Below are positions 17,914 to 36,578 of a stretch of 46,248 nucleotides of DNA, in pieces. Position numbers and translations under genes: made by a program. Position 1 is the stretch's first letter; every line of letters starts with the position of its first letter. The notes under the pieces are model-generated. The model had not been told where the DNA came from and searched no databases. It saw only the letters and a program-made list of their open reading frames with translations. Location of the stretch: IMG/VR virus record IMGVR_UViG_3300032163_000001, positions 1 to 46,248 of that record. One strand, given 5' to 3'. This DNA comes from a virus.

Positions 17914-17944
17914 GAACAAATATAAAACTACAAAAGGGATAATA

Positions 17945-21552: not shown

Positions 21553-24500
21553 AAAATTTCGACTTAATACACAAACTACTGACTCATTACGTTTCGTCTT
21601 AACAGATCAGAATATAGATCGTCCATACGCACTCGTCTACTTCTCTGAAAACTCTACTTTTATTGAAGACTATCCAAAGCTAAATCTTAGACCAGTAGAT
21701 TTTAGAATTGTCCTTGTCCCCTGGTCTATTCTTCCGAAATCTTCATTAACTAAAGATATGAGAGATGAGTATAAGAAACTTGGTTTACTTGCATATTCTA
21801 GTCGATTAAAAAATATGCCAAAAAGAAGAAATATTATAATTGATATTTCTGAATATATCGCAGCGATTGATAAATATCTAAAACCCATTAATTATAGACT
21901 GCGGGCTGGAAGGTATATTATTAGTCTTTTAAAATCAGTAGCTTTTAACTGGTCTAAGGATTATGAACTAGTTTTTGTTTACTCTATAGATATCAACAAA
22001 CCTATCTTTAAAATTATTGATAGAAGAGTATTTCCGATTGTTCGAAATGTAAGAGATGAAGAGTTTCCATTTAAACATTTTATTTTATCTACTATTGGTG
22101 CATCAAGTGTAAGATATCGTCTTTTGATGAAAAATGGAAGTTTCAATTACGCATTTTTGTGGCAGTATATAAAAGCTATTACACAATCTCATAGACCTGA
22201 GATAGAAGACCATGAAACAGTTGATATTCCGAAAGTTGATAAAGACGATGATCCAGAAATAGAGTCAGCTTCACAAGATATAGTAAAACATGTAGAACCA
22301 CATGTTGACAAAAAAAATGTTCAAAAATTCAAATCTTCTATTTCTTCTTTTTTAAAGAAAGATAATAAATCACTGGATAGAGTTATTTCTAAAGAAGTTA
22401 CTCCAGAAGAAAAACAAAAGATTGCTATCGCTTCAATCCTATATAAAAGTACAGGAGACTTACAGAGAGCTAAAAGTATAGCGAAATATATTCCAACAAA
22501 AGATGTTCTTAAAGCTTTGGTAAATGTTGATAAGAAGTATGCAGATGAACTTTTACCGCGAGTTCCAACTCTTTCTACATCAGAACACCCTATAGTTAAA
22601 CTTGTTGATATTCCAGAAATTGTAGAGAAAAAAGTTCCTACTCATATTATAAGTAAGAGACAAATAGATTTTCATGAAAACTTGAAGAAAGATGTTATTT
22701 CTTCGTTCTCTACTCTTGCTAAGAAGAAAGAAGGAGCAGTAAGACTTGAGAAACTTGAAATAGAAGATAAACCAGAGAAAAGGGGAGAAGTAGAGAAGAC
22801 TGATTTAGCAACTCTAAAAGTTGTTCTAAAAGACGAATTTGGGAATGTACATAAAATTGTAATTGACATTCCTAAGATAGATCAATTTGGAACGTTTAGA
22901 GTTAATGGAATAAGACAGTGCCTTTTAAACCAAATAATTTTTTGTCCAATTACGTTTCCAAAAAGGTATGATTCAAGGTTTGAAAGTTTTTACTCACAGT
23001 TTCATATTAAAAGTAAAAGAGTTAGAGAACCATACTATTTAGAAATCTATATGGGTGGAAATATTATTCCATTACTAATTTGTTTAGGTTATGGTTTTGG
23101 ATTTGATAACGTTCTAAAAGACTATGGAATTTCTTACAAAGTTGTAGATAAAAAATCTAAGGAAGAATTTTCTAGTAAAGTAAACGAAGACAAATATATT
23201 ATATTTGAAAAGGTTGATAATGAACTTAAACAAGAATTATGTACTTCTTTTATCAAGGCAAAAGTTTGGAAATATAAAATTGATAAAGAATTTCCTAGTA
23301 GAGAATACTTCAATGATTTAATCATTAAACTAACAGGAAGAATAAATTCTACATATATGATTCAAACTAACATAGAAAATATTATAGATCCAGTAACTAA
23401 ACAAGTTTTATTGAATAAAGGTCAACCAGTAACACTAGATCAAGTTATGAGATATATGGCTTCTAAAGTAGTTACTGGTTATATAGAAGATTTGAATGAC
23501 CTTTCTTCAAGAAGAATAAGAAGTTCTGAAGTTTTAGTTCATTTACTTCAGGAACAAATAGAAGCTGCTTATACTGTTTATAGATCTCAAATTCTTTCTG
23601 GAAATAAGAGCGCTAAACTAGAGATTTCTCCAATTGCACTTATGAAAAAATTTAAACAACAAGAAATAGTTGTTAATATGGAATACTCGAATCCACTAGA
23701 AGAACTAGCTACTTTAACTAAAATTAGTCCAATAGGAAAATCAATAAGCGGTATACCAGGGAGAGAATCTGTACAAGTTAGTGCTAGAGATATTAACGAT
23801 TCGTTTTTTGGTAACATAGATCCTTTAGATACACCTGAAGGGGAAATGGTTGGGATAGTGCAGTATCTTACAGTTGATGCTAATATAACTACAAGTAGAG
23901 GTTTGTTTTTTAAGAAGTCTCTGGATGATAAAGAAAAGTCTGGAATACTTTCAACATCTAGTTCAATGATTCCATTTATTGAAAGAAATGATGGTGCTAG
24001 AGTTTTGATGGCTGATGGTCACTCAAAACAAGCTTTGCCTTTAAAGAACCCGGAATCTCCAATAGTACAATCAGGTTATGAATCAGTTCTCACAAGGTCT
24101 TTATCTGACAACTTTTTAAAACCATCTCCGTGTGATGGAGTTGTCCAGAATATTACAAATGATAGTATTACGATAGAATGTAAAGATGGAGAAAAAGAAA
24201 GTGTTGATATTACACCAAGGTATCTAAGATCTGGAACTGGGAAAGATACTTTAAGTGTTTTTAATGTTAAAGTTGAAAAGAATCAGAAAGTTAGAAAAAA
24301 TCAAATACTTGCAGAAGGTGCGTGTATTTCTAATGGTATGATTTCTTTAGGAAGAACTTTGTGTGTTGCGATAATGAATTATAAAGGATATAATTTTGAA
24401 GATGGAATAGTAGTTAGTGAAAAACTGATAAGTGAAGAAAAATTGACATCTCTGCATGGAGAAGAGATTGATGTATGGGTTTCTGAGAAAGATAGAATTT

Positions 24501-25690
24501 TGTTTGTAAATTCAATTGGGACTGTTACTGAAAGAGGAGATGCTCTTTTAAGAAAGACTAGAGGTGAGATAGAAGAACTTCTTGGTTATACTGAAGAAGT
24601 TGAAGATGAATCAGTTTATATATCAGGCCGAGAATTTATGAAGAAAAGTCCAGGTGGTGTAATTGTAGATATTGAAGTATTTACGAATGTTAAATCAGAA
24701 AGATTTCCATTACTTAAAGATTTAATTGAAAGAACTTCTAGAAAATATAGAAAACCTTCTGCTGATCCATTTACAATTAAAGGAGAAAGGATAAATGGAG
24801 TTTTAGTTCGATTTAGAGTAGAGCAAGAACTAAAGATAACTCTAGGAGATAAGATTTGTAATAGATATGGAAATAAAGGAATTATTTCTTTAATAGAAAA
24901 ATCTGAGTATATGCCTAGAACTCCATGGGGAGAAGAGGTTGATATTATATTGAACCCTCTTGGTTTAGTAAGTAGGATGAATATTGGTCAGTTATTTGAA
25001 ATATATTGTGGACTTATCTCTAAAGCTTTAGCTATAAAAATTGTAGAAAGTAATGACCAAAATAGAGCTGTAGAAGGTTTAAGAAGAACTCTCCCACTTC
25101 TAGATGGAACAACTAAAAAAATATATAGTAGTAGTTTAATACAAAGTATATCTAGACTTACAAAAGCAGATTTTTCTAGACTTATAGATAGTATTACGAA
25201 AACGAAGTTCTTTCCAATTATAATACCTCCATTTCAATCACCTAAACTACAAGATATTAAGAAATGCTTAAAAGCTTTGGGTTTAGATGATGGATATCAT
25301 TTGACATTACCAGAGTTCGCGACTAAAACTTCTGAGAAAGTCCCAGTGGGGTATATGTATATTTACAAGTTAGAACATCTTGGAGAGTTAAAGATTTACG
25401 GTCGTTCTACAGGGATTGTTTCTGGCAAAGTTATGCAACCTGTTTCTGGAAGAAGGTTAGAAGGAGGACAAAAGATAGGAGAAAATGATACCTATTCATT
25501 ATTCTCATATAATTGTCCAATTTTGTTAAGTGAACTCTTTGGGCCATTGTCGGATGATCATACTACAAAGAATGAGATCATTTCTGATATAATTCATACT
25601 GGTGGAGCTAAGTATAGAGAAGCGAAAGTTTCGCCGGTTAAAGATCTCTTGAACGCCTATCTCGTATCTCTTATGTTAGCTCCGAAGTGA
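21536..25690 (+). CDS. multisubunit RNA polymerase beta-like subunit with a roughly 440-aa N-terminal extension
   Basis: QFGTFRVNGIRQ matches GTFVINGTERV. DPLDTPEGEMVG matches PIETPEGPNIG. RNDGARVLMADGHSKQA matches ANDANRALMGANMQRQA. GDKICNRYGNKGIISLI...VDIILNPLGLVSRMNIGQLFE matches GDKMAGRHGNKGVIS...VDIVLNPLGVPSRMNIGQ. Confidence 0.85.
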   Translation: MAIRFEKFRLNTQTTDSLRFVLTDQNIDRPYALVYFSENSTFIEDYPKLNLRPVDFRIVLVPWSILPKSSLTKDMRDEYKKLGLLAYSSRLKNMPKRRNIIIDISEYIAAIDKYLKPINYRLRAGRYIISLLKSVAFNWSKDYELVFVYSIDINKPIFKIIDRRVFPIVRNVRDEEFPFKHFILSTIGASSVRYRLLMKNGSFNYAFLWQYIKAITQSHRPEIEDHETVDIPKVDKDDDPEIESASQDIVKHVEPHVDKKNVQKFKSSISSFLKKDNKSLDRVISKEVTPEEKQKIAIASILYKSTGDLQRAKSIAKYIPTKDVLKALVNVDKKYADELLPRVPTLSTSEHPIVKLVDIPEIVEKKVPTHIISKRQIDFHENLKKDVISSFSTLAKKKEGAVRLEKLEIEDKPEKRGEVEKTDLATLKVVLKDEFGNVHKIVIDIPKIDQFGTFRVNGIRQCLLNQIIFCPITFPKRYDSRFESFYSQFHIKSKRVREPYYLEIYMGGNIIPLLICLGYGFGFDNVLKDYGISYKVVDKKSKEEFSSKVNEDKYIIFEKVDNELKQELCTSFIKAKVWKYKIDKEFPSREYFNDLIIKLTGRINSTYMIQTNIENIIDPVTKQVLLNKGQPVTLDQVMRYMASKVVTGYIEDLNDLSSRRIRSSEVLVHLLQEQIEAAYTVYRSQILSGNKSAKLEISPIALMKKFKQQEIVVNMEYSNPLEELATLTKISPIGKSISGIPGRESVQVSARDINDSFFGNIDPLDTPEGEMVGIVQYLTVDANITTSRGLFFKKSLDDKEKSGILSTSSSMIPFIERNDGARVLMADGHSKQALPLKNPESPIVQSGYESVLTRSLSDNFLKPSPCDGVVQNITNDSITIECKDGEKESVDITPRYLRSGTGKDTLSVFNVKVEKNQKVRKNQILAEGACISNGMISLGRTLCVAIMNYKGYNFEDGIVVSEKLISEEKLTSLHGEEIDVWVSEKDRILFVNSIGTVTERGDALLRKTRGEIEELLGYTEEVEDESVYISGREFMKKSPGGVIVDIEVFTNVKSERFPLLKDLIERTSRKYRKPSADPFTIKGERINGVLVRFRVEQELKITLGDKICNRYGNKGIISLIEKSEYMPRTPWGEEVDIILNPLGLVSRMNIGQLFEIYCGLISKALAIKIVESNDQNRAVEGLRRTLPLLDGTTKKIYSSSLIQSISRLTKADFSRLIDSITKTKFFPIIIPPFQSPKLQDIKKCLKALGLDDGYHLTLPEFATKTSEKVPVGYMYIYKLEHLGELKIYGRSTGIVSGKVMQPVSGRRLEGGQKIGENDTYSLFSYNCPILLSELFGPLSDDHTTKNEIISDIIHTGGAKYREAKVSPVKDLLNAYLVSLMLAPK

Positions 25691-25703: not shown

Positions 25704-26378
25704 ATGATTATTTATAAAGCTGAGAATAAAGTTAATGGAAAGATTTATGTTGGTGAAACATTACATAAATTAGAAACTAGAATTCATGACCATTTTAGGA
25801 TGGGAGGATCACCCGTTTTCTATAATGCTCTTAAGAAATATGGAATTCAAAATTTTAGTATCTTAGTAATAGATACAGCTAAATCTATAAAAGAACTTAA
25901 TGAAAAAGAGAAGTACTGGATCAAATTCTATAATTGTAAAGTTCCAAATGGATATAATTTGACTGATGGTGGAGATGGAATCACTGGATATATTCATACT
26001 CCGGAAGCAAGAAAGAAGATAAGTGAAAAATTGAAGGGAAGAAAAAGAGAATATATGGTAGGAGATAACAATCCAATGAAAAGACCAGAAGTCAGAAAGA
26101 AAGTTAGTAATTCGCAGAAAGTCTATATGAGTAAACCAGAGGCAAAACAAAAAGTTAGTGAAAAATTAAGAAATAGAAAATTTTTAGATGAACATAAAGA
26201 AAAATTGAGAAGACCTAGATCACAAGAATCAAAGAAAAGAATGAGTGAATCAAGAAGAGGAAAAGTTCCTTGGAATAAAGGTTTAACAAAAGAAACTGAC
26301 GAAAGAGTTAAAAAATATTGTGATTTAAATAAGAACAGATATCAGTTAAATGAAATAAAAATTTTAGCACCAAAATAG
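25704..26378 (+). CDS. GIY-YIG homing endonuclease (copy 2)
   Basis: IYKAENKVNGKIYVGET, KYGIQNF, EKYWIKFYNCKVPNGYNLTDGG. The first 40 nt are nearly identical to copy 1. Confidence 0.7.
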   Translation: MIIYKAENKVNGKIYVGETLHKLETRIHDHFRMGGSPVFYNALKKYGIQNFSILVIDTAKSIKELNEKEKYWIKFYNCKVPNGYNLTDGGDGITGYIHTPEARKKISEKLKGRKREYMVGDNNPMKRPEVRKKVSNSQKVYMSKPEAKQKVSEKLRNRKFLDEHKEKLRRPRSQESKKRMSESRRGKVPWNKGLTKETDERVKKYCDLNKNRYQLNEIKILAPK

Positions 26379-26386
26379 GAGAAACA

Positions 26387-26980
26387 ATGGATCCAGAGAA
26401 AATTCTTTTAGGATCTTCATTTCCATTGTATGAAATCGAAGAGGATTTCGACAGAGACGTTGAGAAAGAAGCGTCTTTAAAATATGATCTTTTGAATATA
26501 GTAAATTCTGTTGGAACTGACGACTTTAAAGATTGTTATTTAATGTCGATCAATTCTATAAAAGATAGTTCAATAGATATTCAACAAGTTTTTTGTAATG
26601 AACTACTGGAAAAAGTTAGAGAAATATATGATTATGAGTTTCCAGTTAAACTAGATTTTAGCGAAAGTACCATCCTAGATTTCTATAAATTTATGGAATT
26701 TGTAGAGTTTGACTACCTTGATTTTTTATCGAAGTTGTGGAGGATTATGAGTCAAGATTTAAAGAGTTTACATGTAGTTGATTTTTGTAGATCTAGCTCT
26801 TTCGAAATAGTTAAGGAGGTTGACGATATAGTAGAAACAAGTTCTTTTCCAAAGTTAGTTTCTATTTTCTGCAGAACATATACAAAAGATAATTTGGTTG
26901 AATTTATTATTAAAAAGACTGTTAGAGATAGAATGTTGATAGTTTTAGAAATCAAGGAAGGAGAAGAGAAAAATGGATAA
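26387..26980 (+). CDS. acidic hypothetical protein
   Basis: 197 aa, Asp/Glu-rich, with a ribosome-binding site. Confidence 0.45.
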   Translation: MDPEKILLGSSFPLYEIEEDFDRDVEKEASLKYDLLNIVNSVGTDDFKDCYLMSINSIKDSSIDIQQVFCNELLEKVREIYDYEFPVKLDFSESTILDFYKFMEFVEFDYLDFLSKLWRIMSQDLKSLHVVDFCRSSSFEIVKEVDDIVETSSFPKLVSIFCRTYTKDNLVEFIIKKTVRDRMLIVLEIKEGEEKNG

Positions 26981-27230
26981 AGGAGAATTCACTGTAACTA
27001 TTAAGAGAGGAAGTATAAATATAAGTACTGATAGAACTGACTTGATTGTGATTGATCAGACTCATGATGGTATAGCATTCAGTTTTAAGTATGGAATTCA
27101 TATTCAAGTAACTGATCAATTTATGCCAACAGAAACGAAAGATCGAATCAAAGCTGCAGACTCTCTTCCAAAAGGAAACATAGTATTTGATCTTAATAAC
27201 TATAATAAACCAGTTCATATAGTACTTTAG
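26973..27230 (+). CDS. hypothetical protein
   Basis: 85-aa ORF with a GAAGGAGAAG ribosome-binding site. Confidence 0.35.
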   Translation: MDKGEFTVTIKRGSINISTDRTDLIVIDQTHDGIAFSFKYGIHIQVTDQFMPTETKDRIKAADSLPKGNIVFDLNNYNKPVHIVL

Positions 27231-27600
27231 TTTTCCGTGAATTTAGGGGTAACTATATATATTAATTACTGGATAGAGGAAATAGTTTTATATTTTTTAA
27301 CGTAACTTTTTCCTTTGTCTATGCCCCTCCTAGTGCGACCAGTAAGATTTAACTTCTACTTTAGTTTTTAGAGAAGTCTTTGATCGAGACTTCTATGCTG
27401 CAGGAGAGATAATATTATTCTCTTGTAGAAGTTGAGTCTTATTGAATCGCAAACTTTAAAAACACTGTTTAAAACATTTTTTGTTATCAATTTTTTGTTA
27501 TTCTTCTCTTTTGTTATTTACGTATATATTACGTTTCTAAAAATCTTAAGTAAGAAAGGAGGTATAAAATGATCTAAAAGGGCTGGAGAAAGGAGGGCGA

Positions 27601-27837
27601 ATGGGGAGTGTAGCGTTTGGTATAGAACAGGATGAAGCTTTGAAAAAGACAAGAAGGAGGATAGTAGATGCGATAAGAAAAACAAAAGATAAAAGTATAA
27701 TTATAGCAGTTGCGAAGTTTCTTGGAGTAGATGATCAAAGTATTCATTTGAGTAAACTAGAAAGAGAACATTTAATAGCGAAACTAGTAATCATAGTTAT
27801 TCAAGGAGGCGTCTTATTTTATTTTAATAGTCTTTGA
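27601..27837 (+). CDS. hypothetical small protein
   Basis: 78 aa with an AAAGGAGGG ribosome-binding site. It lies inside a long, mostly noncoding region. Confidence 0.3.
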   Translation: MGSVAFGIEQDEALKKTRRRIVDAIRKTKDKSIIIAVAKFLGVDDQSIHLSKLEREHLIAKLVIIVIQGGVLFYFNSL

Positions 27838-27901
27838 AATCTTTATATAAGCACAGCTGTAGTTTAGCACTGCTTTTACAAAAGGTTATGCACCGCTAGT
27901 A

Positions 27902-27961
27902 GTCATTAGCACGGCTTAACTTACCTACCTAGAAGTAGGAGGTTAAGCAAGTGCTAATGAC
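27902..27961 (+). terminator. long imperfect hairpin (11+7 bp stem) followed about 20 nt later by a T7 run; terminator-like or regulatory
   Basis: gtcattagcac-g-gcttaac ... gttaagc-aa-gtgctaatgac, then gttttttt at 27981-27988. Confidence 0.3.
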
Positions 27962-28009
27962 CTGAAGTTTGCTTCTTAACGTTTTTTTGTTTCAATTTTG
28001 GGAGGAAGT

Positions 28010-28582
28010 ATGAAAATTATATCAGCTGAAAAACTTATAGAAAAATTAGAATGTGAAGTTTATCCTATTACACTTGTTAAGTTTCTTTTGAATAGGCGAA
28101 GAATTATATCATTTTTCTCTAAAGCTGTGAATGAAGAATTTATATCAAAAAATTTGAGTTTTAAATTAGATACTACTAATTGCGAAGCATGTAAATCTAA
28201 AGATATGTTATGTAGGCAACATACTTCTATTTCTAGAGTTCTTAATTGTTCATCTGTTATACTTGATATAGAGAGTAATATTTATTTGCATAAGAATGAA
28301 ATCTTCAAAGTGATTGGAAAGAATTTAGTTATTGTTTATTGTCCTCACCCCAAACTTATAAAAGGACAATTAACTGATGAGAAAGTTAGAAAAGTTGTTC
28401 CTCTTACAGTTGTTGATGAAAAGCTCAAATTCTCTCCAGAAAATATTAAAGTAGTAAGATCATTTTTAGTTACTGATTTAATGGAACAGTATGTAAAGTG
28501 TTGGTTCAATGATGAGTTTTCTATTATGACAATTCCAGAAGATAAAAGCTCTTCTAACTGGTGTCTTTTAGCGAATAAGTAA
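28010..28582 (+). CDS. hypothetical protein
   Basis: ATG at 28010 with a GGAGGA ribosome-binding site. The track's TTG at 27998 is less likely. Confidence 0.45.
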   Translation: MKIISAEKLIEKLECEVYPITLVKFLLNRRRIISFFSKAVNEEFISKNLSFKLDTTNCEACKSKDMLCRQHTSISRVLNCSSVILDIESNIYLHKNEIFKVIGKNLVIVYCPHPKLIKGQLTDEKVRKVVPLTVVDEKLKFSPENIKVVRSFLVTDLMEQYVKCWFNDEFSIMTIPEDKSSSNWCLLANK

Positions 28583-28609
28583 ACTAATTTTAATGGGAGG
28601 AAAAAGAAA

Positions 28610-29560
28610 ATGGATAAAGAATACGAACAATATGGAGATTTATTTCAAACTTCACACAAAGGTTACAAATCTGTTCCACCAGAAGAGGAATTCTTTAAGT
28701 CAGTTTATATTGGAGGGCAAGATAGAAAGAATCATATCAATATAGTTGAAAAAGCAGGGAAGTTACATATTAGAGGATTTTCTTACAATTTAGATAGAAT
28801 TACAATGTTAATTACACATGTTAAAAACGTACTGGTGAAAACAAGGAGAGATGAGAAAACACAAAGAGATGCTGTAGATTGTTTTTCTTACCAAAGTGAA
28901 GCTCAAAATAATAAGGGAACTTCTGGAAGACAATGTGGAAATAATTCTGCAGAAAGAGCGGCTATGGATTTTTGTAAAGATTGTAGATCTAATTTGGTTG
29001 TATCAGGAATCTATTGTGATGATAGCGGTAAACCTTTTGTCGATGATAGAAACGAATTAGTAAGGATATTTATCAGAGCAAGAGGAATGAAATATACTCC
29101 AGTTAGGGCTCATCTGGATAAACTTGCTACAATGGATATTGATCCTCCATTTTTTACTGATGAAGATCCAAAAGTAAAATCAATGGAAAGAGTTTTAGTA
29201 AATAACAAAAGATTCGTTACAGTTATAACTATTGGAGATGCAGCTACTAAAAGTTATGGAATAAAGAAAGTGTTCCAAATGGATACAGGTCAAAAAGTTC
29301 CAAGAGAAGTTACTCAAGCAGTATTAACTGATGCTAAGGGAAGTGTGAAAGAGTTTAATGAAAAGTTCGATTGGTCAAGGAATAAGACAGCTGTAGGTTA
29401 TTCAGAAGATTCTCAAACTGAAGAGTCTGATACTAAAATTGATGCAACTCAAACGTTTGAAAGTCCTACAGAAAAACCAGCTGAAACGAAACAAACTGAA
29501 CCAGAGAAGTCAAAAACAGAAAGTCACCGAAATGTAAATTTTGAAGATATTAAGTTCTAG
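28610..29560 (+). CDS. hypothetical protein with a Cys cluster and acidic C-terminal tail (speculative gp32-like ssDNA-binding protein)
   Basis: CGNNSAERAAMDFCKDCRSNLVVSGIYCDD cysteine cluster. The 60-aa acidic tail ends NFEDIKF, similar to the SSB acidic-tip logic (DDDIPF). Confidence 0.4.
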   Translation: MDKEYEQYGDLFQTSHKGYKSVPPEEEFFKSVYIGGQDRKNHINIVEKAGKLHIRGFSYNLDRITMLITHVKNVLVKTRRDEKTQRDAVDCFSYQSEAQNNKGTSGRQCGNNSAERAAMDFCKDCRSNLVVSGIYCDDSGKPFVDDRNELVRIFIRARGMKYTPVRAHLDKLATMDIDPPFFTDEDPKVKSMERVLVNNKRFVTVITIGDAATKSYGIKKVFQMDTGQKVPREVTQAVLTDAKGSVKEFNEKFDWSRNKTAVGYSEDSQTEESDTKIDATQTFESPTEKPAETKQTEPEKSKTESHRNVNFEDIKF

Positions 29561-29582
29561 AGGTAGTTAAGTAAGGAGGTTT

Positions 29583-30836
29583 ATGATGGCTAGCGGCTCA
29601 GCTCAGAAAGAGTCTTTTAAAGAACAGAAATATTTCGAAAGGTTAAATATTACATGTACTTCAATTTCTAAAGTTAAACAACTAATTAAAGATAATATAA
29701 AAAATACTATTAATTGTTGGAATAATGGAAGACCTGTTGAAAAACAAACGTTTCATATGATTGGACCAGCTGGAGTAGGGAAGACGAAGATATGTTATCA
29801 AATAGCAGAAGAACTTGGAAAAGAATTGGAAACTGATTTTTCAGTGAAGATGATTAAAGCTCCTGTTCTTTCGAGAGACGATTTTATCATTCCATTTCCA
29901 ATCATAGATAATGGTAATACATCATTTAAAATGTTGTATTCAGATTTCGTTCCTAAAGACCCTGATAGTTATGGATTATTTGTTATTGATGAATGTGGTA
30001 GAGGGGATCATGCTTTACAACAGTTGATGTGGCAAGTACAGAATGAATGTAAAGTTCATTTACTGGATTTCCCTAAAGGATGGTTTGTTATAGCAACAGA
30101 TAATCCAGACGATAGAGAATACAGCATGGATATTATAGAAGATGCAGCAGGACTTAGAAGAATGCTACATGTCTATATATCAGTGTCTTCTAGAGATTTC
30201 CTTTCTTATGCAAAAGAATATGGATTTCATAAATATGTAGTTCAGTTTATAGAAGCTCACCCAGAATTTCTTTACGATTTTGAGTCACAAAAACTTGGAG
30301 CTGTTTATGCAAATCCAGCAAGTTGGGAAAAAGTTTCTACAATTTTATGGTCTTATGATATAAAAGACAAAGTTTTACTACATTTAGAGGACGTAGAAAT
30401 TTTGCTATCTGGTCTTCTTAATACTAGTAAAACAAGACTTTTTGTAGAATTCTTGAAAGCTAAAAAGATTATTAAACCTGATGATATTGTTCATGATTAC
30501 GTGTCTATTAGGTCTGATATTCTAGAACTTGTTGAATCTGGAGATAATGCTTCTCTTTCTGAAATAATGAATTCGTTCTTAACTTATTTGAATGATAATA
30601 AACCTGATAGGGGAAAAGCAGAACTAAAGAATATTGGAGCATTTCTAACAGATATTCCAATAGACACAGCTTCAATTTTAGTATCGTATGTTTATAAGTG
30701 TCCTACAAATTCTCCAGGATACAAATATTTTACAACTTTACATGTTGACCTTATGAAAGTGAATAAAGATTATCAACAGAAGTTTTACAACAATCTTGTA
30801 GATTTGTCGAAAAGGGCTACTGGAGAAAACAAATGA
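29583..30836 (+). CDS. MoxR/McrB-like AAA+ ATPase
   Basis: Walker A GPAGVGKT. Walker B FVIDECGRG, matching the DE-x-x-R pattern of DEINRA in MoxR/McrB. Sensor-1-like ATDNP. It is adjacent to and overlaps the von Willebrand A gene. Confidence 0.6.
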   Translation: MMASGSAQKESFKEQKYFERLNITCTSISKVKQLIKDNIKNTINCWNNGRPVEKQTFHMIGPAGVGKTKICYQIAEELGKELETDFSVKMIKAPVLSRDDFIIPFPIIDNGNTSFKMLYSDFVPKDPDSYGLFVIDECGRGDHALQQLMWQVQNECKVHLLDFPKGWFVIATDNPDDREYSMDIIEDAAGLRRMLHVYISVSSRDFLSYAKEYGFHKYVVQFIEAHPEFLYDFESQKLGAVYANPASWEKVSTILWSYDIKDKVLLHLEDVEILLSGLLNTSKTRLFVEFLKAKKIIKPDDIVHDYVSIRSDILELVESGDNASLSEIMNSFLTYLNDNKPDRGKAELKNIGAFLTDIPIDTASILVSYVYKCPTNSPGYKYFTTLHVDLMKVNKDYQQKFYNNLVDLSKRATGENK

Positions 30837-32095
30837 GTAAAGATTCAGATGAGGTTATGAAAAAAGTTATTGCTGTACTTATGTTAAAAGGATCATATTG
30901 GGGGTTTTTATTTTCTAGAATAAAGAGAGTGGGAAATACATCTTTACCATATTCGATGGGTGTAGCAAGTGATTCAGATAGTACAGTTATTTTGTACTAC
31001 AACCCAGATTTTATTAGTGAAGAAGATTTTAAAGTTCTGGAAAGTTTAGTAGAACATGAAGGAATGCATCTTTTAAATGACCATATTCCAAGAATGTATC
31101 GTTTGTTAGATTCAGAATACGATAAAGAGAAGAGACGATCAGTTCAAGAAATTTTTAATCTAGCAGGCGATTGTGCTGTAAATTCTGTTATAAATATTCC
31201 AAAAATTATTACTTTAAAAGGAAACGATTATACTCTTGTTTTTCCAGAACGATTTAATTTGCCAGATAAACAAAGCGCAGAGTTCTATTTCTTTGAGATA
31301 ATGAAACAGTCGAAGAAGGTATCTGGTAAAAAAGAAATTGGTGTTGTATCTGGTTGTACCAAAAATCATGAGAAATGGACAGATAATAAAGTTTCAGACC
31401 CAGTTTCTTTTTCTAGAAAAGTAGAGGCATTTATTCAAGATATTGCAAAAGAATCTTTTAATGAATGTCAATCTAGAGGAACAGTTCCAGGTTATATTTC
31501 CCAGATGATTCAACAACTATTGGAACCTCCTAAACTTCCTTATTATCAAATAATTAGAAAACTAGTTCGAAGCTCTAGAATCGGTAAATTTAAATCATCT
31601 TCAACAAGAATCAATAGAAAAAGAACATATGTTTTTGTTACTAACCAAAAAAATGTACCTGAAATATCTCCATTTCCAGGTAGAGTAAGAGACTACACAT
31701 TTAAGATTGGAGTGTTAATTGATGTATCTGGAAGCATGAATATAGAAAAAGTATGTGAAGGACTTTCTGGTGTTAGAAATCTTATTGAGAATGATAGAAA
31801 TTGTACAACAATAGTTATTGAAGTAGATACAGTTGTTCAGAAAGAATATCGAGTTAAGAGAATTGATGATATTCAATTTAATATTAAAGGTAGAGGTGGG
31901 ACTATATTATTTCCAGCCCTGCAAAGGTTTAAAGAACTAAAAACAGATGTTGTTTTGGGTTTTACTGATGGATATTGCGAAAATATTAATATGATTGATA
32001 GAAAACTTTTACCAAAGAGAATTATTTGGGTTGTTTTAAGTGGAACAGAAGAGAATTTAGATAAAACAGGGTTTGTAATTAATTTAAAGGGATAA
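30833..32095 (+). CDS. protein with an N-terminal HExxH metallopeptidase-like domain and a C-terminal von Willebrand A domain (DUF2201-like architecture)
   Basis: VEHEGMHLLNDH contains the HExxH motif. LIDVSGSMN is the MIDAS DxSGS motif. Downstream FTDG matches the von Willebrand A TDG. The ATGA overlaps the ATPase stop. Confidence 0.6.
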   Translation: MSKDSDEVMKKVIAVLMLKGSYWGFLFSRIKRVGNTSLPYSMGVASDSDSTVILYYNPDFISEEDFKVLESLVEHEGMHLLNDHIPRMYRLLDSEYDKEKRRSVQEIFNLAGDCAVNSVINIPKIITLKGNDYTLVFPERFNLPDKQSAEFYFFEIMKQSKKVSGKKEIGVVSGCTKNHEKWTDNKVSDPVSFSRKVEAFIQDIAKESFNECQSRGTVPGYISQMIQQLLEPPKLPYYQIIRKLVRSSRIGKFKSSSTRINRKRTYVFVTNQKNVPEISPFPGRVRDYTFKIGVLIDVSGSMNIEKVCEGLSGVRNLIENDRNCTTIVIEVDTVVQKEYRVKRIDDIQFNIKGRGGTILFPALQRFKELKTDVVLGFTDGYCENINMIDRKLLPKRIIWVVLSGTEENLDKTGFVINLKG

Positions 32096-32099
32096 CTAA

Positions 32100-33893
32100 A
32101 TGACTAAAAAAGATTATACTTTTAAAGATATTAAAGTTCTCGATGAAATTTCACATATTCGTTTAAATTGTGGAATGTATATAGGAGAAACATCTAATCC
32201 TGTACATTTAGTAGAAGAAGCTTTAGATAATAGTTTAGATGAATGTTTAGCTGGGTTCGCTAGTATTATTGCAATCAATATTGATACGAAGAATCATGTA
32301 TATAGTGTACTAGATAATGGAAGAGGTATTCCAATAGAAAATGATGTACCAGTAATAATATCTACTAAACTTTTCTCTGGAGCGAAATTTCAAGATAGTA
32401 AAACTGCATATGAAATTGCTTGTGGATTGCATGGTGTAGGATTAGTTGCAGTCAACGCTCTAAGTGATTTTCTTATCATTGAAATCTATAGAGATAAGAA
32501 ACATGCAGTTTATACATTCGATAAAGCAGTTCTCAAAAGTAAGAAGATTGAAGACCATAAAGGAAATATTCCATTTTCTACTAAACTACAATTTAAACCA
32601 GATAAGAAAATATTTGAGAATCTAATTCCAGATGTAGATAGAATTAGAAGAAGACTTTTAGCTGCATCTGTAGAACTAGAAAATTGTACCTTTGTTCTAA
32701 ATGTAGATGACAAGAAAGAAGTTATAAAACTAGATAAGAACAATTACTTTAAAAATGTTTGTTTAAATGAGTCGGATACTGAAATATCTCCTGTTATTAA
32801 TCTAGAGAGTGATAATGATGGAGAAGTTTTAAAAGTTATGTTTTGTTATTCTTTTTCAGGTTCTCCTACTCCAAGAACCTTTTCTTCTATTAACCTTTTA
32901 CCTGTAGAATCTGGGGGAACACATGTTAGCTATTTTATGGATATAGTTAAAGAGCTATTTTCTATCAGAAGTAAAAAAGCGAACGTGAGAATGCAACCAT
33001 CTGATTGCTTCATTGGTTTGAGGAGCTATATTAGTTTATCTCTAAAGAAACCAGAATTTTCTGGACAAACAAAAGATAAGTTAATTAATAGAAAATCTTA
33101 TCTTGATAAATTGTTCTCAAAGTTTAAGGTTTCTTTAGAAACTTATTTCTCTAAGAACCCGGAGCAACTTGAATTTCTTCTCTCTAAGTTTGCGGAATAC
33201 AGAAAGAAACTTGATTCTAAAAAATTAAAATTTAATGGATCAAGGTTCTCTACAAAGTTTACAAAACTTAGAGACTGTTCTTCAAGCAATGGAGAACTAT
33301 ATGTATGTGAAGGAGATTCAGCTGGAGGATCTATTTTAGCTTGCAGAAACCCCCAGGTTCATGCAGTACTTCCTTTAAAAGGGAAGATTCCATCTATTGT
33401 TAATGCGGTAGATATTTTAAAAAATGAAGAGATAGGAGAGTTAATTCAAGCACTAGGGGCGGGTGTTGGTTCTAACTTCGACATTACAAAATTAAAGTAT
33501 GAGAAGATTATTTGTGCAACAGATGCAGATGATGATGGAAAACATATCTTTTGTTTGTTAACTATTATTTTAGCAAATTTAGTACCAGATGTAATTAAAG
33601 ACGGACACTATTATTTAGCACAAACTCCTTTGTATGCAATCAATAAAGGAAAAACATTCCTTCCATTATGGAATGAAGATTCTTTGAAGAAAGCTAAAGA
33701 GAAACAAGAACCAATTACAAGATTTAAAGGTTTAGGTGAACTTAGTCCATGGCAACTTAAGATTAGTCTTTTGGATGAAAAGACAAGACATTTTACAAAA
33801 GTTGTATTTACAAAAGATCTCTCAAAATTAATGAAATTATTTTCTGATGTTCAAACTAAAAGATTATTATTAGAAGGAAAATTTACTATGTGA
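32100..33893 (+). CDS. type II DNA topoisomerase ATPase/Toprim subunit (GyrB or T4 gp39/gp60-like)
   Basis: GHKL motifs EEALDNSLDE and LDNGRGIP. Toprim motifs CEGDSAGGS and PLKGKIPS. KGLGE near the C-terminus. Confidence 0.8.
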   Translation: MTKKDYTFKDIKVLDEISHIRLNCGMYIGETSNPVHLVEEALDNSLDECLAGFASIIAINIDTKNHVYSVLDNGRGIPIENDVPVIISTKLFSGAKFQDSKTAYEIACGLHGVGLVAVNALSDFLIIEIYRDKKHAVYTFDKAVLKSKKIEDHKGNIPFSTKLQFKPDKKIFENLIPDVDRIRRRLLAASVELENCTFVLNVDDKKEVIKLDKNNYFKNVCLNESDTEISPVINLESDNDGEVLKVMFCYSFSGSPTPRTFSSINLLPVESGGTHVSYFMDIVKELFSIRSKKANVRMQPSDCFIGLRSYISLSLKKPEFSGQTKDKLINRKSYLDKLFSKFKVSLETYFSKNPEQLEFLLSKFAEYRKKLDSKKLKFNGSRFSTKFTKLRDCSSSNGELYVCEGDSAGGSILACRNPQVHAVLPLKGKIPSIVNAVDILKNEEIGELIQALGAGVGSNFDITKLKYEKIICATDADDDGKHIFCLLTIILANLVPDVIKDGHYYLAQTPLYAINKGKTFLPLWNEDSLKKAKEKQEPITRFKGLGELSPWQLKISLLDEKTRHFTKVVFTKDLSKLMKLFSDVQTKRLLLEGKFTM

Positions 33894-33910
33894 AAGGAGG
33901 TAAAATTACT

Positions 33911-34471
33911 ATGGAGACAATTAAATTAGGAAACTTTGAAATTGAATCAGGAAAAGTTAGAGTTTCAGATCCATGTTATGATATTGATACTTGGTGTGCT
34001 ACAACTTTAGAAAATGTTAAGAAAGGGAAGTGGCTTGCTCAAGCAGAAATGATAGATGAAGGTTTATGGGGAAAAAGAGTTTCTATTCTACGTTGTTTTC
34101 ATGAATCTCTTACTAATGGAATGATAAATGAAATAGAGCGAGAAATAATATCAGAAAAGATTGGTGTAGATAGTGGTCAAGCAGGAATTTTTGATATTGA
34201 ACATTTTAAGAAAGATTCTGATACTGTTGGTTTTAAAAAACAATATAAAGAAGAATCAATCCGCAAAGATGAACCTTGGTATTCAATGTGTTGTGATGTG
34301 ACTTTAAGTAGGAATGCAGGAGTTGTTCCTTTTGGTGTTGTATCTTCTTCTGGCTTTGGAGATGGATCTTATGTTTGTGAAGTAGGTAGGAAAGATAAAG
34401 ATGATGAAATTTCTTTAATAGAAATCGATTTTGGATTAAATAAAGAAGACGAGGAAGAAGATGGAGAATGA
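33911..34471 (+). CDS. hypothetical protein with an acidic C-terminus
   Basis: ATG at 33911 with an AAAGGAGG ribosome-binding site, preferred over the track start at 33890. Confidence 0.4.
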   Translation: METIKLGNFEIESGKVRVSDPCYDIDTWCATTLENVKKGKWLAQAEMIDEGLWGKRVSILRCFHESLTNGMINEIEREIISEKIGVDSGQAGIFDIEHFKKDSDTVGFKKQYKEESIRKDEPWYSMCCDVTLSRNAGVVPFGVVSSSGFGDGSYVCEVGRKDKDDEISLIEIDFGLNKEDEEEDGE

Positions 34472-34632
34472 AAAAATAGTTACAGTTAAACAAGAAGTTA
34501 AATGCCCATATTGTGGATATATGTGTGATAGAGGAGGAATTTCTTGCGATCATTTAGTATCTATTTCAGATTTAGGTTATGCAATGATTTGGAAGTTTAA
34601 AGAAAAGGAGGAAGACGATAGTGAGTTATAAT
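34462..34632 (+). CDS. small zinc-ribbon protein (56 aa)
   Basis: CPYCGYMCDRGGISCDH. It overlaps the upstream stop and is below the track's length cutoff. Confidence 0.3.
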
Positions 34633-34854
34633 TATCCAAAACCACAAAAGAAACAAGAAAAAGATTTTAACGAACTTGAAGAGCTTGTTGATGATTATAT
34701 GAATGAAATAGAAAAATTAGAACAATTTTCTGGTGATGAAACACGTTATTTTGTAACTGAAAAGTTAGAACATTACATTTTTGAAGCAGCTCTTTACGCA
34801 TTTTATGGAAAAGATGTTTGGAAGTATACTAGCGAAAGGTTAAAAATAAGATGA
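34621..34854 (+). CDS. hypothetical small protein
   Basis: 77 aa; the start codon is ambiguous. Confidence 0.35.
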   Translation: MSYNYPKPQKKQEKDFNELEELVDDYMNEIEKLEQFSGDETRYFVTEKLEHYIFEAALYAFYGKDVWKYTSERLKIR

Positions 34855-35258
34855 AAATTGCTATTGTAGGAGCAGATGGAAAGAAATGGGGAAGTCTTGG
34901 AAAAGTTAGTAAATCTAACTTTCTTATAATTGTTGCTAAACAACTAATTGAGAAAATCTTGAAAGATAATCCTGGTTGCACTTTGGTTTCAGGGGCTTGT
35001 CCAACAGGGGGAGTTGATATCTGGGCGGAAGAAGTAGCAGATAAACTTGGAGTTCCCAAAGAAATCTATCCTCCTCGTATAAACAAATGGGAAGGTTATA
35101 AAGAAAGAGATATCAAAATAGCAAAGGCATGTGATAAACTTGCGTGTATTGAACCCTATAGAAGAAATCATTCTGGCGGAATGTGGACCATGAATTATGC
35201 GAGTAAATTAGGGAAACCAGTCAAGTTATTTGTGATTAAAGAAATGTTAGATAATTAG
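34851..35258 (+). CDS. DprA/Smf-like (SLOG-type Rossmann) protein
   Basis: IAIVGADG...LVSGACPTGGVDIWAEEVADKLG resembles the DprA core (SGlArGIDaaAHrgAL). Confidence 0.35.
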   Translation: MKIAIVGADGKKWGSLGKVSKSNFLIIVAKQLIEKILKDNPGCTLVSGACPTGGVDIWAEEVADKLGVPKEIYPPRINKWEGYKERDIKIAKACDKLACIEPYRRNHSGGMWTMNYASKLGKPVKLFVIKEMLDN

Positions 35259-35271
35259 TGTAGATAAAATT

Positions 35272-35531
35272 CTTAAGTAGATCTAGTTAAGGAGGTAGGC
35301 CTAACAGCAGTCATCCTTTAAAGAGTGACGATAGGTAGTGAAGGGGAGGCACACTTAAACCAATGATCCTGACGAAAAAGAAAACTTGCAACGGGGATTG
35401 AGCAAGTGGATGCCTACGGTATAGCGGCAAAGTTCAGTACGTTCAGATTTGGTCGTCCTCATCCAGGTTTGAACGTGAGTTAGCTGGATGCTCCCGTCTT
35501 AGTCTTTGGCGTAGCAGCACACTTTTCTAGA
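35272..35531 (+). other. GC-rich noncoding island (about 230 nt) closed by a perfect 15-bp inverted repeat; candidate structured RNA or MITE-like element
   Basis: CTTAAGTAGATCTAG at 35272-35286 and its reverse complement at 35517-35531. The interior is visibly GC-richer than the flanks and has no ORF. It contains the internal hairpin CATCCAG...CTGGATG. Confidence 0.35.
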
Positions 35532-35567
35532 TCTACTTAAGTTAAATAAAAAGGAAAGGAGAAAAAC

Positions 35568-36578
35568 ATGATTCAAAATTACATTAATCATATTGTATTT
35601 GTAGTAGATAGAAGTGGTTCAATGCAACAATTAACACAAGATGTTGTAAGAGTATTTGATAGCCAAATTAAATATTTATCTCAACGTTCTCAAGAATTGA
35701 ATCAAGAGACTAGAGTATCTGTTTATTTATTCTCATATTGGAATAGAATAGAATGTCTTGTTTATGATATGGATGTTATGCGTCTTCCAAGTTTAAAAGG
35801 ATATTATGATCCTGATGGACAAACAGCTCTTATTGATGCTACATTAAAAGCTATTAGTGATTTGGGAAAGACTCCAGAACTTTATGGTGATCATGCTTTC
35901 TTAATTTATACTCTTACTGATGGACAAGAAAATAATAGTAGGAATCAATCTCATGTATTATTAACTGCAATAGAAGCACTGCCAGAAAATTGGACTTTAG
36001 CGGTTTTAGTTCCAGATCAACGGGGAGTATTCGAATCTAAGAAGTTTGGTTTTCCAGTCGAAAATATCTCTATATGGGATCCAAGTTCAGTAAAAGGATT
36101 TGAAGAAGCTGGTAGTGTTATTCGCCAAGCAACTGATAACTTCATGAAGGGGAGAGCATCAGGAATTCGGGGAACTAGAAATTTATTTAGACCTGATATA
36201 ACAGCTACTGCCTCGCAAGTAAAGAAGAGTCTTGAAGAACTTAAACTAAATGAATATATTATTTTTAGAGTCAAAAAAGATTCTCCAATAAGAGAATTTG
36301 TGGAATCAGTTATGCGAAAGTATGTGAAAGGTTCAGCCTATTATCAATTAGTAGAGAGGAAGAAACCACATAAAATCCAAAATTATAAGCAAGTTTGCAT
36401 TAGAGATAATAATTCTGGAAAAGTATATACAGGGGATAATGCTAGACTTATATTAGGTTTACCAGATTATCAAGTAGAAGTTAAACCTGGAAACTTTAAG
36501 AATTTTGATGTGTTCGTTCAAAGTACATCTGTAAATCGAAAGTTAACTAAAGGAACAGATTTAATCGTTCTTACATAA
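35568..36578 (+). CDS. von Willebrand factor A domain protein
   Basis: VFVVDRSGSMQQ (MIDAS DxSGS). TALIDAT. YTLTDGQENNS (TDG motif). Confidence 0.6.
   Translation: MIQNYINHIVFVVDRSGSMQQLTQDVVRVFDSQIKYLSQRSQELNQETRVSVYLFSYWNRIECLVYDMDVMRLPSLKGYYDPDGQTALIDATLKAISDLGKTPELYGDHAFLIYTLTDGQENNSRNQSHVLLTAIEALPENWTLAVLVPDQRGVFESKKFGFPVENISIWDPSSVKGFEEAGSVIRQATDNFMKGRASGIRGTRNLFRPDITATASQVKKSLEELKLNEYIIFRVKKDSPIREFVESVMRKYVKGSAYYQLVERKKPHKIQNYKQVCIRDNNSGKVYTGDNARLILGLPDYQVEVKPGNFKNFDVFVQSTSVNRKLTKGTDLIVLT

Follow-up and report, generated by a model that had tools for sequence, protein, structure and literature searches.

Why would a phage encode, among its replication and transcription genes, a MoxR-like AAA+ ATPase joined to a protein that combines a metallopeptidase-like and a von Willebrand A (VWA) domain, and when during infection would the two act? 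The question is raised by a 46,248-nt stretch of viral DNA (hereafter the window; IMG/VR record IMGVR_UViG_3300032163_000001, positions 1 to 46,248), which carries three plus-strand open reading frames at 28610-29560 (316 aa), 29583-30836 (417 aa) and 30833-32095 (420 aa). A ribonucleotide reductase (RNR), UvsX, two multisubunit RNA polymerase (RNAP) genes and a split topoisomerase II surround them, in agreement with the replication region in which the preliminary description had placed the module. The window also contains a baseplate-spike-like gene (14783-15646) and encodes a CBM96 protein. The phage belongs to a large uncultured clade, whose contigs reach about 280-310 kb. The features of the locus are the following; invariance in the clade was counted over 30 relatives in both the ATPase and the DUF2201 alignments.

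27850..27965, plus strand: predicted RNA hairpin followed by a U-rich tract (MFE -51.3 kcal/mol, z = -4.7 vs shuffles)
27998..28582, plus strand: conserved Cys/His-rich protein of ~190 aa, whose gene in relatives always immediately precedes that of the 316-aa protein
28610..29560, plus strand: 316-aa protein with a globular core (~25-258), a disordered acidic linker (260-310) and the C-terminal tip SF(D/E)D(I/V)xF
29583..30836, plus strand: MoxR-class (AAA_5-type) AAA+ ATPase, 417 aa, as predicted, with an AAA+ core (about 55-200), a lid and a long helical C-terminal domain
29763..29786, plus strand: Walker A GPAGVGKT, residues 61-68 (G64, G66, K67 and T68 invariant in the clade)
29988..30002, plus strand: Walker B with its arginine, D136-E137-C-G-R140 (D136, E137 and R140 invariant in the clade)
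30102..30161, plus strand: stretch from sensor-1 N174 (DNP) to the (A/P)-L-x-x-R box, with N174 and R193 unchanged in every alignment
30833..32095, plus strand: 420-aa protein with DUF2201_N (zincin-like metallopeptidase, ~11-251) and DUF2201 (VWA-like, ~294-403), from Pfam, PHROG and hhalign
31055..31084, plus strand: predicted metal-binding/catalytic motif HExxH-x4-H (H75, E76, H79, H84), invariant in the clade
31721..31735, plus strand: MIDAS motif DxSGS (D297, S299, G300, S301), with D297, S299 and S301 invariant in the clade and G300 nearly so
31901..31969, plus strand: remaining MIDAS ligands, T357 (GRGGT) to D379 (FTDG), both invariant
32100..33893, plus strand: large (GyrB-like) subunit of topoisomerase II (Pfam DNA_gyraseB, Toprim and HATPase_c; phrog_543, 8.6e-116)

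The 417-aa protein, whose gene is preceded by an AAGGAGG ribosome-binding site, has no Pfam AAA_5 match of its own and a weak one to PF00004 (17.8 bits, gathering threshold 21.2). AAA_5 is matched by 22 of 30 clade ATPases (E < 0.1), by the homologue g028 of phage AR9 (30.3 bits, cut-off 22) and by 61 of 67 distant HMMER-significant relatives, among which AAA_3 was found in 21 and bpMoxR in eight. With a profile that included cultured-phage homologues, the entire AAA+ core aligned to McrB (E = 1.4e-11) and a match to the MoxR-like protein 2r44 was obtained at 1.9e-4; CbbQ and NorQ belong to the top structural matches. The Walker A residues G64, G66 and K67 are invariant in six phage lineages and in the 67 distant relatives; E137 of Walker B is invariant across the same number of phage lineages and nearly so in the distant set. 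R193 is a candidate arginine finger, the corresponding box of the AR9 homologue reading ALRDRF. The MoxR class is defined by an insert in helix 2 of the AAA+ core (PMC7159879), accompanied by a beta-hairpin ahead of the sensor-1 strand. In the AF2 model, a beta-hairpin (105-109 / 112-116) lies between a short helix (93-96) and strand 130-136, with a pLDDT of about 50-57 at residues 98-117, and short strands stand just ahead of strand 166-173; the segment around residues 98-117 is the most conserved part of the protein. Judged by its sequence, the ATPase is a member of the MoxR/AAA_5 clade of AAA+ proteins.

Its partner exceeds the gathering thresholds of both Pfam families, PF13203 DUF2201_N (43.0 bits vs 23.2; 5.7e-11) and PF09967 DUF2201 (33.0 vs 26.4; 7.3e-08), and falls into phrog_1314 (1.6e-47). 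Both domains were matched in all 30 clade members, and VWA_2 was also matched in 23 of these 30 proteins. The HExxH-x4-H motif together with R87, D113 and N117 (window numbering) is invariant in the clade and across seven phage lineages; the whole DxSGS motif of the MIDAS does not vary across phage lineages either, and the HExxH/MIDAS residues are likewise unchanged in the homologues of N4, AR9, PA5oct, Moorella, Alteromonas and rV5-like phages. This invariance of HExxH-x4-H and of A-x-D-x3-N, from N4 to the clade, argues for a retained catalytic zinc site. Sequence searches found no solved structure for the DUF2201 family. The ATGA overlap that joins the ATPase stop to the DUF2201 start, with GGAG 9 nt upstream, indicates that the two genes are translationally coupled.

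The reading of the preliminary description, in which an ATPase with a MoxR/McrB-type Walker A and a DE..R Walker B overlaps by ATGA with a DUF2201-type protein bearing HExxH and MIDAS motifs, is supported: the Walker motifs are present and invariant in the 30 relatives, the overlap is real, and the two DUF2201 domains score above curated thresholds with their motifs intact. The profile searches it had proposed recovered DUF2201_N and DUF2201 in the window protein, and AAA_5 in relatives of the ATPase, not in the window ATPase itself. It had named a clamp loader, a terminase or packaging ATPase and a broken MIDAS or HExxH as results that would speak against it, and none of these was found; a terminase or packaging ATPase is ruled out by full-core matches to McrB and AAA_5. 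Some database annotations nevertheless assign the ATPase to replication, as a clamp loader or an accessory factor of DNA polymerase, and label its neighbour an HNH endonuclease, homologues being named 'DNA polymerase III delta prime subunit', 'replication factor protein' or 'HNH endonuclease', and weak NCBIfam RFC matches exist. For a clamp loader of the RFC, gp44 or DNA polymerase III delta' type, these matches give 15-24 bits at most against cut-offs of 280-588 and are confined to the P-loop (residues 33-89), whereas the full core goes to McrB and AAA_5; phrog_11838 scores only 0.004. No HNH Pfam match was obtained in the window protein, in 30 clade members or in the homologues from N4 (gp25), AR9 (g029), PA5oct and Moorella. 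The 'HNH' protein scores instead as DUF2201_N plus DUF2201 (293 and 158 bits for N4 gp25). The profile comparisons thus already refute this reading, to which we assign almost no probability, and 'HNH endonuclease' is a mis-annotation of DUF2201 proteins that has propagated in PHROGs and RefSeq phage records.

How far does the transcription unit extend beyond the pair? From the ~190-aa gene through topoisomerase II, successive genes are separated by 27, 22, -4 and 4 nt, the topoisomerase II gene beginning 4 nt past the DUF2201 stop, and these gaps show no enrichment of predicted promoters or terminators. The upstream hairpin is a candidate terminator or 5' boundary of the module's transcription unit. 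The first gene of the series likely starts at ATG 28010, after GGGAGG. Its product is kept in 37 related loci (mean identity 51%) with C58, C61, C68, H71, C111, H113 and C164 invariant; it has no match in Pfam, PHROG or PDB and no similarity to T4 gp59. The 316-aa protein has no match in Pfam, PHROG or NCBIfam, none in PDB by sequence, and an hhalign probability of 0.2% with T4 gp32. The Cys cluster and the acidic tail ending NFEDIKF that had been described for it are confirmed: C91, C109, C122 and C125 are invariant within the core, residues 260-313 have pLDDT <50, and the C-terminal tip is conserved, its last F being found in 31 of 32 homologues. This architecture suggests a zinc-containing single-stranded-DNA-binding protein. 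The proposal that its gene shares an operon with the pair holds in part. It is probably co-transcribed with the pair in the window, but in relatives it is often parted from the pair by inserted genes, up to 1.6 kb, and it looks like a DNA-binding replication protein; this suggests a syntenic, co-oriented neighbour, not a third subunit of the machine.

The gene neighbourhood, whose conservation had been put forward as a check, is fixed in 42 clade loci in the order RNAP subunit, 194-aa protein, 316-aa protein, ATPase, DUF2201 and topoisomerase II, the last lying downstream of the pair in every one. In 37 of 40 related loci the ATPase gene directly precedes DUF2201, at a distance of <130 nt. Mean identities of relatives to the window are 53.5% for the ATPase, 46% for DUF2201, 57% and 52% for topoisomerase II and 50% for RNAP; the pair is conserved as strongly as topoisomerase II and RNA polymerase are. 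Adjacency of the two genes was also observed in AR9, N4, Alteromonas N4-like, Moorella, rV5-like and Staphylococcus jumbo phages and in Firmicutes and Verrucomicrobia assemblies, and it is conserved in >40 loci and seven lineages. In some cellular genomes the pair sits among housekeeping genes, which bears out the expected partnership of DUF2201 proteins with MoxR ATPases in cells.

The pair is not new in phages: it is represented by N4 gp24/gp25, by AR9 g028/g029 and in the jumbo phages of Iyer et al. 2021, and the novelty implied by the preliminary description was therefore overstated. In N4 (Schitoviridae), gp24 (AAA ATPase) and gp25 (vWFA protein) form a two-gene module in the same order as in the window, among transcription, nucleotide-metabolism and replication genes, and are two of the 14 N4-like core genes (PMC4193335). 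Hhalign probabilities against the window proteins are 95.8% (ATPase) and 98.1% (DUF2201), and gp25 matches DUF2201_N and DUF2201 strongly, with HExxH and MIDAS intact. However, identity to the window is only about 20-23%, the proteins of N4 fall short of the window pair in length (352 and 380 aa), and their genes lie 167 nt apart instead of overlapping, in the 70-kb genome of a podovirus that has single-subunit RNA polymerases. AR9 is a jumbo phage with multisubunit RNA polymerases, in which the pair lies near gyrase B. Homology of g028 to the window ATPase is full-length and extends through the helical C-terminal domain (hhalign 98.4% over 337 columns), and g029 shows 27% tblastn identity over 92% of the query; the AR9 genes do not overlap and their flanking genes differ. 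Timing has been measured in AR9: g028 has a mapped early transcription start site, and g028/g029 RNA rises from 88/77 at 5 min to 464/595 at 20 min (PMC5312081 supplements). Neither g028 nor g029 is among the 43 virion proteins of AR9, all of which are products of late genes except g084 and g215. Finally, Iyer et al. 2021 (PMC7824862) described a MoxR AAA+ and metallopeptidase-vWA chaperone-cochaperone pair in 'group 2.2' jumbo phages, with the same architecture as the window pair. They proposed a role in virion assembly and proteolytic processing, whereas the context of the window and the AR9 timing point to an early or middle role.

Other MoxR-VWA systems provide a frame for function. RavA-ViaA, CbbQ-CbbO, NorQ-NorD and CoxD-CoxE share the AAA_5/MoxR-type core and a genetically linked VWA/MIDAS partner, and McrB resembles the window ATPase family by its sequence-profile match. 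In contrast to the window protein, the cellular VWA partners are devoid of a DUF2201_N zincin domain, and the helical C-terminal domain of the window ATPase (about 230-417) is family-specific, with no counterpart in the matches. Acidianus two-tailed virus (ATV), compared by description, has a viral MoxR-VWA pair with chaperone function (p618 and p892); its VWA protein p892 lacks a peptidase domain (PMC7824862), and this pair of an archaeal virus acts on extracellular tail development. FtsH-type AAA+ metalloproteases, of the classical AAA clade, unite an AAA+ motor and an HExxH zinc peptidase in one membrane-anchored polypeptide. We use FtsH as a functional analogy only and claim no homology; in the window the two activities would be carried by two soluble proteins bridged by a VWA adaptor.

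On these grounds we are confident of the identity of the module itself, and we regard it as fairly probable that the ATPase and the DUF2201 protein form a translationally coupled counterpart of the N4 and AR9 pairs that acts as a split AAA+ metalloprotease or maturase at early or mid-infection. A plausible mechanism, which we hold about as readily as we doubt it, has three steps. By analogy with the general behaviour of MoxR-VWA pairs, the MIDAS metal site of the VWA domain would grip a specific client by one of its acidic side chains or carboxylates. The ATPase, which presumably forms a hexameric ring, would then bind the VWA cofactor and remodel or partly unfold the client by ATP hydrolysis, and the HExxH domain, given its invariant catalytic residues, would cleave it. 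The whole would be an adaptor-guided machine whose client may be a host or a phage protein. Expression of the module most likely coincides with that of the replication and transcription genes, and normal growth probably depends on it; both points are supported by the gene context, by conservation like that of topoisomerase II and RNAP, by its place among the N4-like core genes and by the early transcription seen in AR9, and we consider early or middle timing reasonably likely.

Three other functions have to be weighed against a split metalloprotease or maturase of early or mid-infection. The published proposal, drawn from the ATV analogy (PMC7824862), is a chaperone and protease that folds, assembles and processes structural proteins late. 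The AR9 transcripts are still high at 20 and 40 min, the window contains a baseplate-spike-like gene, and in PA5oct the ATPase homologue EST35_0335 is annotated with an ESI-MS/MS note, meaning that it was detected in a purified phage preparation; however, the PA5oct study calls seven MS-detected proteins virion-unrelated enzymes, and the DUF2201 partner has no MS note. The neighbours of the pair in N4, Alteromonas, Moorella and AR9 phages, as in the 42 clade loci, are transcription and replication genes and not morphogenesis modules. Together with this context, the early promoter, 5-min transcripts and absence from virions in AR9 weigh against virion assembly, which we consider unlikely.

Early expression in AR9 would suit a protease of host takeover or counter-defence, destroying a host defence factor, nucleoid protein or RNA polymerase factor early in infection. 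The peptidase motif is intact, the MIDAS domain is adaptor-like and, among phages, the pair occurs only in large virulent ones that remodel their host. Counter-defence genes are typically accessory and fast-evolving, unlike a pair conserved like topoisomerase II and RNAP, fixed in position and core in N4-like phages of very different hosts. PADLOC gave no significant match on the module (best AbiO, E = 0.0014, in the P-loop region), and the occurrence of the pair among housekeeping genes of cellular genomes means that a purely anti-host role is not required; we find such a role improbable. A metal-centre or cofactor maturase like CoxD/CoxE, NorQ/NorD or CbbQ/CbbO would activate a phage metalloenzyme, for instance RNR, the Zn-containing 316-aa protein or RNA polymerase, without proteolysis. 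Several characterised MoxR-VWA pairs do serve metal-centre assembly or enzyme activation (PMC7159879; PMC3893208), CbbQ and NorQ rank among the structural matches, and the window encodes RNR and Cys-rich neighbours. The invariance of HExxH-x4-H and A-x-D-x3-N speaks against this possibility, as does the finding that no single metalloenzyme consistently accompanies the pair in the lineages examined, and we hold it to be quite improbable.

The pair is a widespread and conserved phage gene module: besides being core in N4-like phages, it is carried by AR9/PBS1, PA5oct, rV5-like phages and Staphylococcus and Vibrio jumbo phages, and the ATPase family by itself, clustered at 50% identity, numbers >5,000 representatives. 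The window extends this list by a large uncultured clade whose members keep the pair, equally constrained, in a fixed place between an SSB-like gene and topoisomerase II. Read alongside the AR9 timing data already published, the clade context moves the likely role away from virion assembly and towards the replication and transcription phase, and N4 and AR9 offer tractable models for the module. More speculatively, and with rather low probability, the module may be an essential early or middle split AAA+ metalloprotease, not a virion chaperone, acting on the replisome, the transcription complex or a host DNA-bound protein, perhaps through binding of the MIDAS to the SSB-like acidic tip. If true, such a protease of the DNA machinery would be one conserved druggable activity common to N4-like, AR9-like, other jumbo and rV5-like phages and to the uncultured clade.

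The preliminary description had placed three open reading frames on the plus strand, namely a MoxR-like AAA+ ATPase gene, a partner gene combining an HExxH motif with a MIDAS-containing von Willebrand A (VWA) domain, and an upstream gene possibly in the same operon. All three were found where it had placed them, and the ATPase stop codon does overlap the start of the partner gene (caaATGAgt, with GGAG upstream). They lie among the following features of the window, which also encodes a ribonucleotide reductase and a recombinase of the UvsX type:

1745–2935, ORF with a CBM96/disaggregatase-repeat domain
14783–15646, baseplate-spike-like ORF with a Phage_base_V (baseplate spike OB) domain
17903–20947, plus strand, multisubunit RNA-polymerase gene 1 (1014 aa)
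21536–25690, plus strand, multisubunit RNA-polymerase gene 2 (1384 aa; a homologue has Rpb2-type domains)
25704–26378, plus strand, GIY-YIG + NUMOD3 homing endonuclease, between the large RNA-polymerase subunit gene and hyp197
27850–27965, plus strand, long RNA hairpin, nearly perfect, with a U-rich tract behind it (MFE -51.3 kcal/mol, z -4.7)
27998–28582, plus strand, ~190-aa Cys/His protein with invariant C58, C61, C68, H71, C111, H113 and C164
28610–29560, plus strand, upstream protein (316 aa)
29583–30836, plus strand, ATPase (417 aa)
30833–32095, plus strand, DUF2201 protein (420 aa)
32100–33893 and 42948–44249, split topoisomerase II, large and small subunit
33890–34471, plus strand, DUF4241 protein, with a 4-nt overlap with the topoisomerase gene end
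35568–36578, plus strand, second VWA protein, standalone (336 aa), its MIDAS intact (DRSGS at residues 14–18, T86, D118)
39567–40649, plus strand, endonuclease with a C-terminal HNH region (phrog_4645 / phrog_99), between the topoisomerase II large and small genes

The partner protein matches both DUF2201_N (putative metallopeptidase) and DUF2201 (VWA-like) above the Pfam curated cut-offs, as do all sampled members (30/30) of the clade of related uncultured large phages, 23 of the 30 also matching VWA_2. In the clade alignment the HExxH (H75, E76, H79) and MIDAS (D297, S299, S301, T357, D379) residues are intact and invariant, together with H84, R87, D113 and N117, and this invariance holds after addition of the N4 gp25, AR9 g029, PA5oct, Moorella, Alteromonas and rV5-like homologues. 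Neither single-sequence nor profile searches retrieved a solved structure with a sequence relationship to this protein, and no record of its exact sequence was found. A link of the zincin domain to SprT/WLM DNA-protein-crosslink proteases, considered because the DUF2201 gene adjoins topoisomerase II, is without support; the sole secondary zincin family in these proteins is a weak Peptidase_M48 match in 6/30 members.

PHROGs names phrog_1314 "HNH endonuclease", many RefSeq labels for DUF2201 homologues read alike, and "HNH endonuclease" or "homing endonuclease" is put in these resources on the DUF2201 proteins of N4 (gp25), AR9, PBS1, PA5oct, and Vibrio and Acinetobacter phages; for one ATPase homologue the label is "ribosomal protein uS19". 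No HNH domain was detected in the DUF2201 proteins of the window, the clade or the phage homologues, and the "HNH endonuclease" label is therefore wrong. The HNH/homing endonuclease and uS19 labels are propagated mis-annotations.

Single-sequence searches with the ATPase matched the P-loop only, the window protein itself does not reach the AAA_5 Pfam threshold, and PDB searches with the single sequence or the clade profile gave only P-loop-level Clp matches. Its placement in the MoxR/AAA_5 clade is supported by membership in phrog_1297 (4e-31) and by homology of the clade profile to AR9 g028 (337 columns, hhalign 98.4%) and N4 gp24 (279 columns, hhalign 95.8%). Further support comes from the PDB matches of a profile built from six phage lineages, which retrieved McrB over 190 residues (1.4e-11) and the MoxR-like 2r44, its Clp matches being mostly limited to the region around the P-loop, and from distant relatives. 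The AR9 g028, N4-like, Moorella and PA5oct ATPases pass the AAA_5 threshold, and an exhaustive search gave 5,129 cluster representatives at E <= 1e-3, the full-length distant relatives matching AAA_5 (61/67), AAA_3 (21/67) and bpMoxR (8/67). Clamp-loader, terminase and packaging-ATPase readings are excluded, the McrB and AAA_5 matches covering the core. In all alignments, Walker A, Walker B, sensor-1 N174 and the (A/P)LxxR-box residue R193 show no or almost no variation. A helix-2 insert is the clade-defining MoxR feature (PMC7159879), and the corresponding region was modelled, at low confidence, as a beta-hairpin (105–116). None of the proteins examined had a meaningful match to a defence system in PADLOC.

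Conservation of the gene neighbourhood, proposed earlier as a check, is evident in related phages both as an order kept in 42 loci and as adjacency of the pair in several lineages. The 42 loci share the order RNA polymerase subunit, hyp197, hyp194 (the ~190-aa protein), 316-aa gene, ATPase, DUF2201, topoisomerase II large and small, with variable gaps at three joints (316-aa/ATPase, DUF2201/topoisomerase II large, and large/small). The ATPase and DUF2201 genes are less than 130 nt apart in 37/40 loci; in the three exceptions (L012, L044, L047) the DUF2201 match starts later, and in L044 and L047 it lies ~700–800 nt further downstream after the ATPase gene. Four DUF2201 proteins (P0123, P0125, P0168, P0202) are ~490–506 aa long, with the window protein matched over ~58–61% of its length. 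These longer proteins, the partial match and the late match start in L044 and L047 suggest that an N-terminal segment was inserted or replaced in a DUF2201 sub-lineage including these two loci. Identity to the window averages 53.5% for the ATPase and 46% for DUF2201, near the values for the topoisomerase subunits (57% and 52%) and RNA polymerase (50%), so that the pair is as constrained as core enzymes. The pair is also adjacent in AR9 (g028/g029), N4 (gp24/gp25), an Alteromonas N4-like phage, Moorella phage MTATph1, rV5-like phages and Staphylococcus jumbo phages, while in PA5oct a homing endonuclease and small genes stand between the two. In the few cellular assemblies sampled, the pair lies among housekeeping genes, e.g. 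by NFACT/RqcH in a Lachnospiraceae MAG; this context is thinly sampled, since the scan with a three-sequence DUF2201 alignment gave 10 loci, several of them phage-like.

N4 gp24 and gp25 have been described since 2009 as "putative ATPase, AAA superfamily" and "vWFA superfamily" of unknown function (PMC2784036), and are two of the 14 core genes of N4-like phages (PMC4193335). No functional work on a phage member of the pair emerged from the literature searches, and the pair goes unmentioned in a 2026 review of jumbo phages. The preliminary observation is thus confirmed and its interpretation supported: the pair belongs, as a new and divergent member, to a phage module that is known but functionally uncharacterised.

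Upstream of the pair, the 32 homologues of the 316-aa protein have in common a globular core and a variable, disordered acidic linker, four invariant cysteines (C-x17-C-x12-C-x2-C) and a conserved SF(D/E)D(I/V)xF tip (FDDIPF in some relatives). This protein is probably an SSB; homology to T4 gp32 was rejected at the sequence level, and no PDB match was found. In relatives, the gene for the ~190-aa protein always directly precedes the SSB-like gene. Searches with its product gave no family, fold or PDB match, and homology to T4 gp59 was rejected by comparison.

Along ~28010–34471 the genes are separated by gaps of 27, 22, -4, 4 and -4 nt, the topoisomerase gene starting 4 nt past the DUF2201 stop, and an AAGGAGG ribosome-binding site precedes the ATPase gene. 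A consensus scan of 26900–36000 found no enrichment of sigma-70-type promoters or intrinsic terminators, both being fewer than in shuffled sequence. The hairpin at 27850–27965 sits just before the array in a 770-nt poorly coding stretch (27230–27998); it matches no Rfam family and could be a terminator or a regulatory element. Given the short gaps, the few promoters and terminators within and the preceding hairpin, co-transcription of the array is plausible.

The source is an uncultured, jumbo-type virulent phage. Proteins identical to those of the window occur on a 185.6-kb metagenomic contig, with relatives on metagenomic contigs, from IMG/VR and elsewhere, that reach ~280–310 kb, and megablast of 24 kb of the window found no nucleotide match among cultured phages. 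Some related proteins (P0039, P0213, P0225, P0257) and an N4-like contig (L051) are filed under MAG titles such as Thorarchaeota, Heimdallarchaeaceae, Thermoplasmata, Izimaplasma or "archaeon"; these are most likely mis-binned phage contigs and no guide to the host. GC content is ~31%, with 44% in the first 2 kb, and the whole window contains no Rfam families and no tRNAs. The beta/beta' genes are split in phiKZ/AR9-type phages, and the two RNA-polymerase genes here appear less fragmented. The CBM96 and Phage_base_V ORFs indicate that structural/host-interaction genes are interleaved with replication genes.

The GIY-YIG gene is a recent mobile insertion, as its flanking genes, those for the RNA-polymerase large subunit and hyp197, adjoin each other in relatives. 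The distance between the topoisomerase II subunit genes differs widely across relatives, which suggests a hotspot for insertions. The DUF4241 gene is accessory, as it was not found in the flanks of related loci, and so here is the standalone VWA gene, which none of the 42 loci has within its 8-kb flanks. The latter's product (phrog_26613, 1.6e-105) shares 50% identity with Mycobacterium phage Myrna gp18 and Phabba and ~38% with Streptomyces phages, a striking reach across hosts.

Following established MoxR–VWA behaviour (summarised in PMC7159879), the MIDAS site would bind a client through an extended acidic peptide, the AAA+ ring would do mechanical work on it, and the HExxH domain, whose motif is invariant, would then cleave it. 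A non-proteolytic metal-centre maturase is also possible, but would leave the invariant peptidase motif unexplained.

As to timing, an early transcription start has been mapped for AR9 g028. RNA of g028/g029 stands at 88/77 after 5 min, 464/595 after 20 min and 378/465 after 40 min (PMC5312081 supplements), and AR9 virion proteins are all late genes, save g084 and g215. The pair's neighbours in every lineage inspected are genes for transcription, nucleotide metabolism and replication. The early start, the late virion set and this context favour an early or middle role, and make less likely the virion assembly with proteolytic processing that Iyer et al. proposed by analogy with ATV p618/p892 (PMC7824862). 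Mass spectrometry of purified PA5oct phage did detect the ATPase, although its authors count some of the proteins detected among virion-unrelated enzymes. Counter-defence agrees with early timing, yet is hard to square with how strongly the pair is conserved, with its fixed position and with its occurrence in cellular genomes. An early "ATPase (ORF169)" of Staphylococcus phage SA1 was left out of the evidence, since no connection to the MoxR homologue could be made.

Our analysis mainly adds the tie of this pair to N4 gp24/gp25 and AR9 g028/g029, a large uncultured clade with fixed synteny and high constraint, a corrected "HNH endonuclease" label, a probable SSB identity for the upstream gene, and an argument for an early or middle role of the pair over a morphogenetic one.
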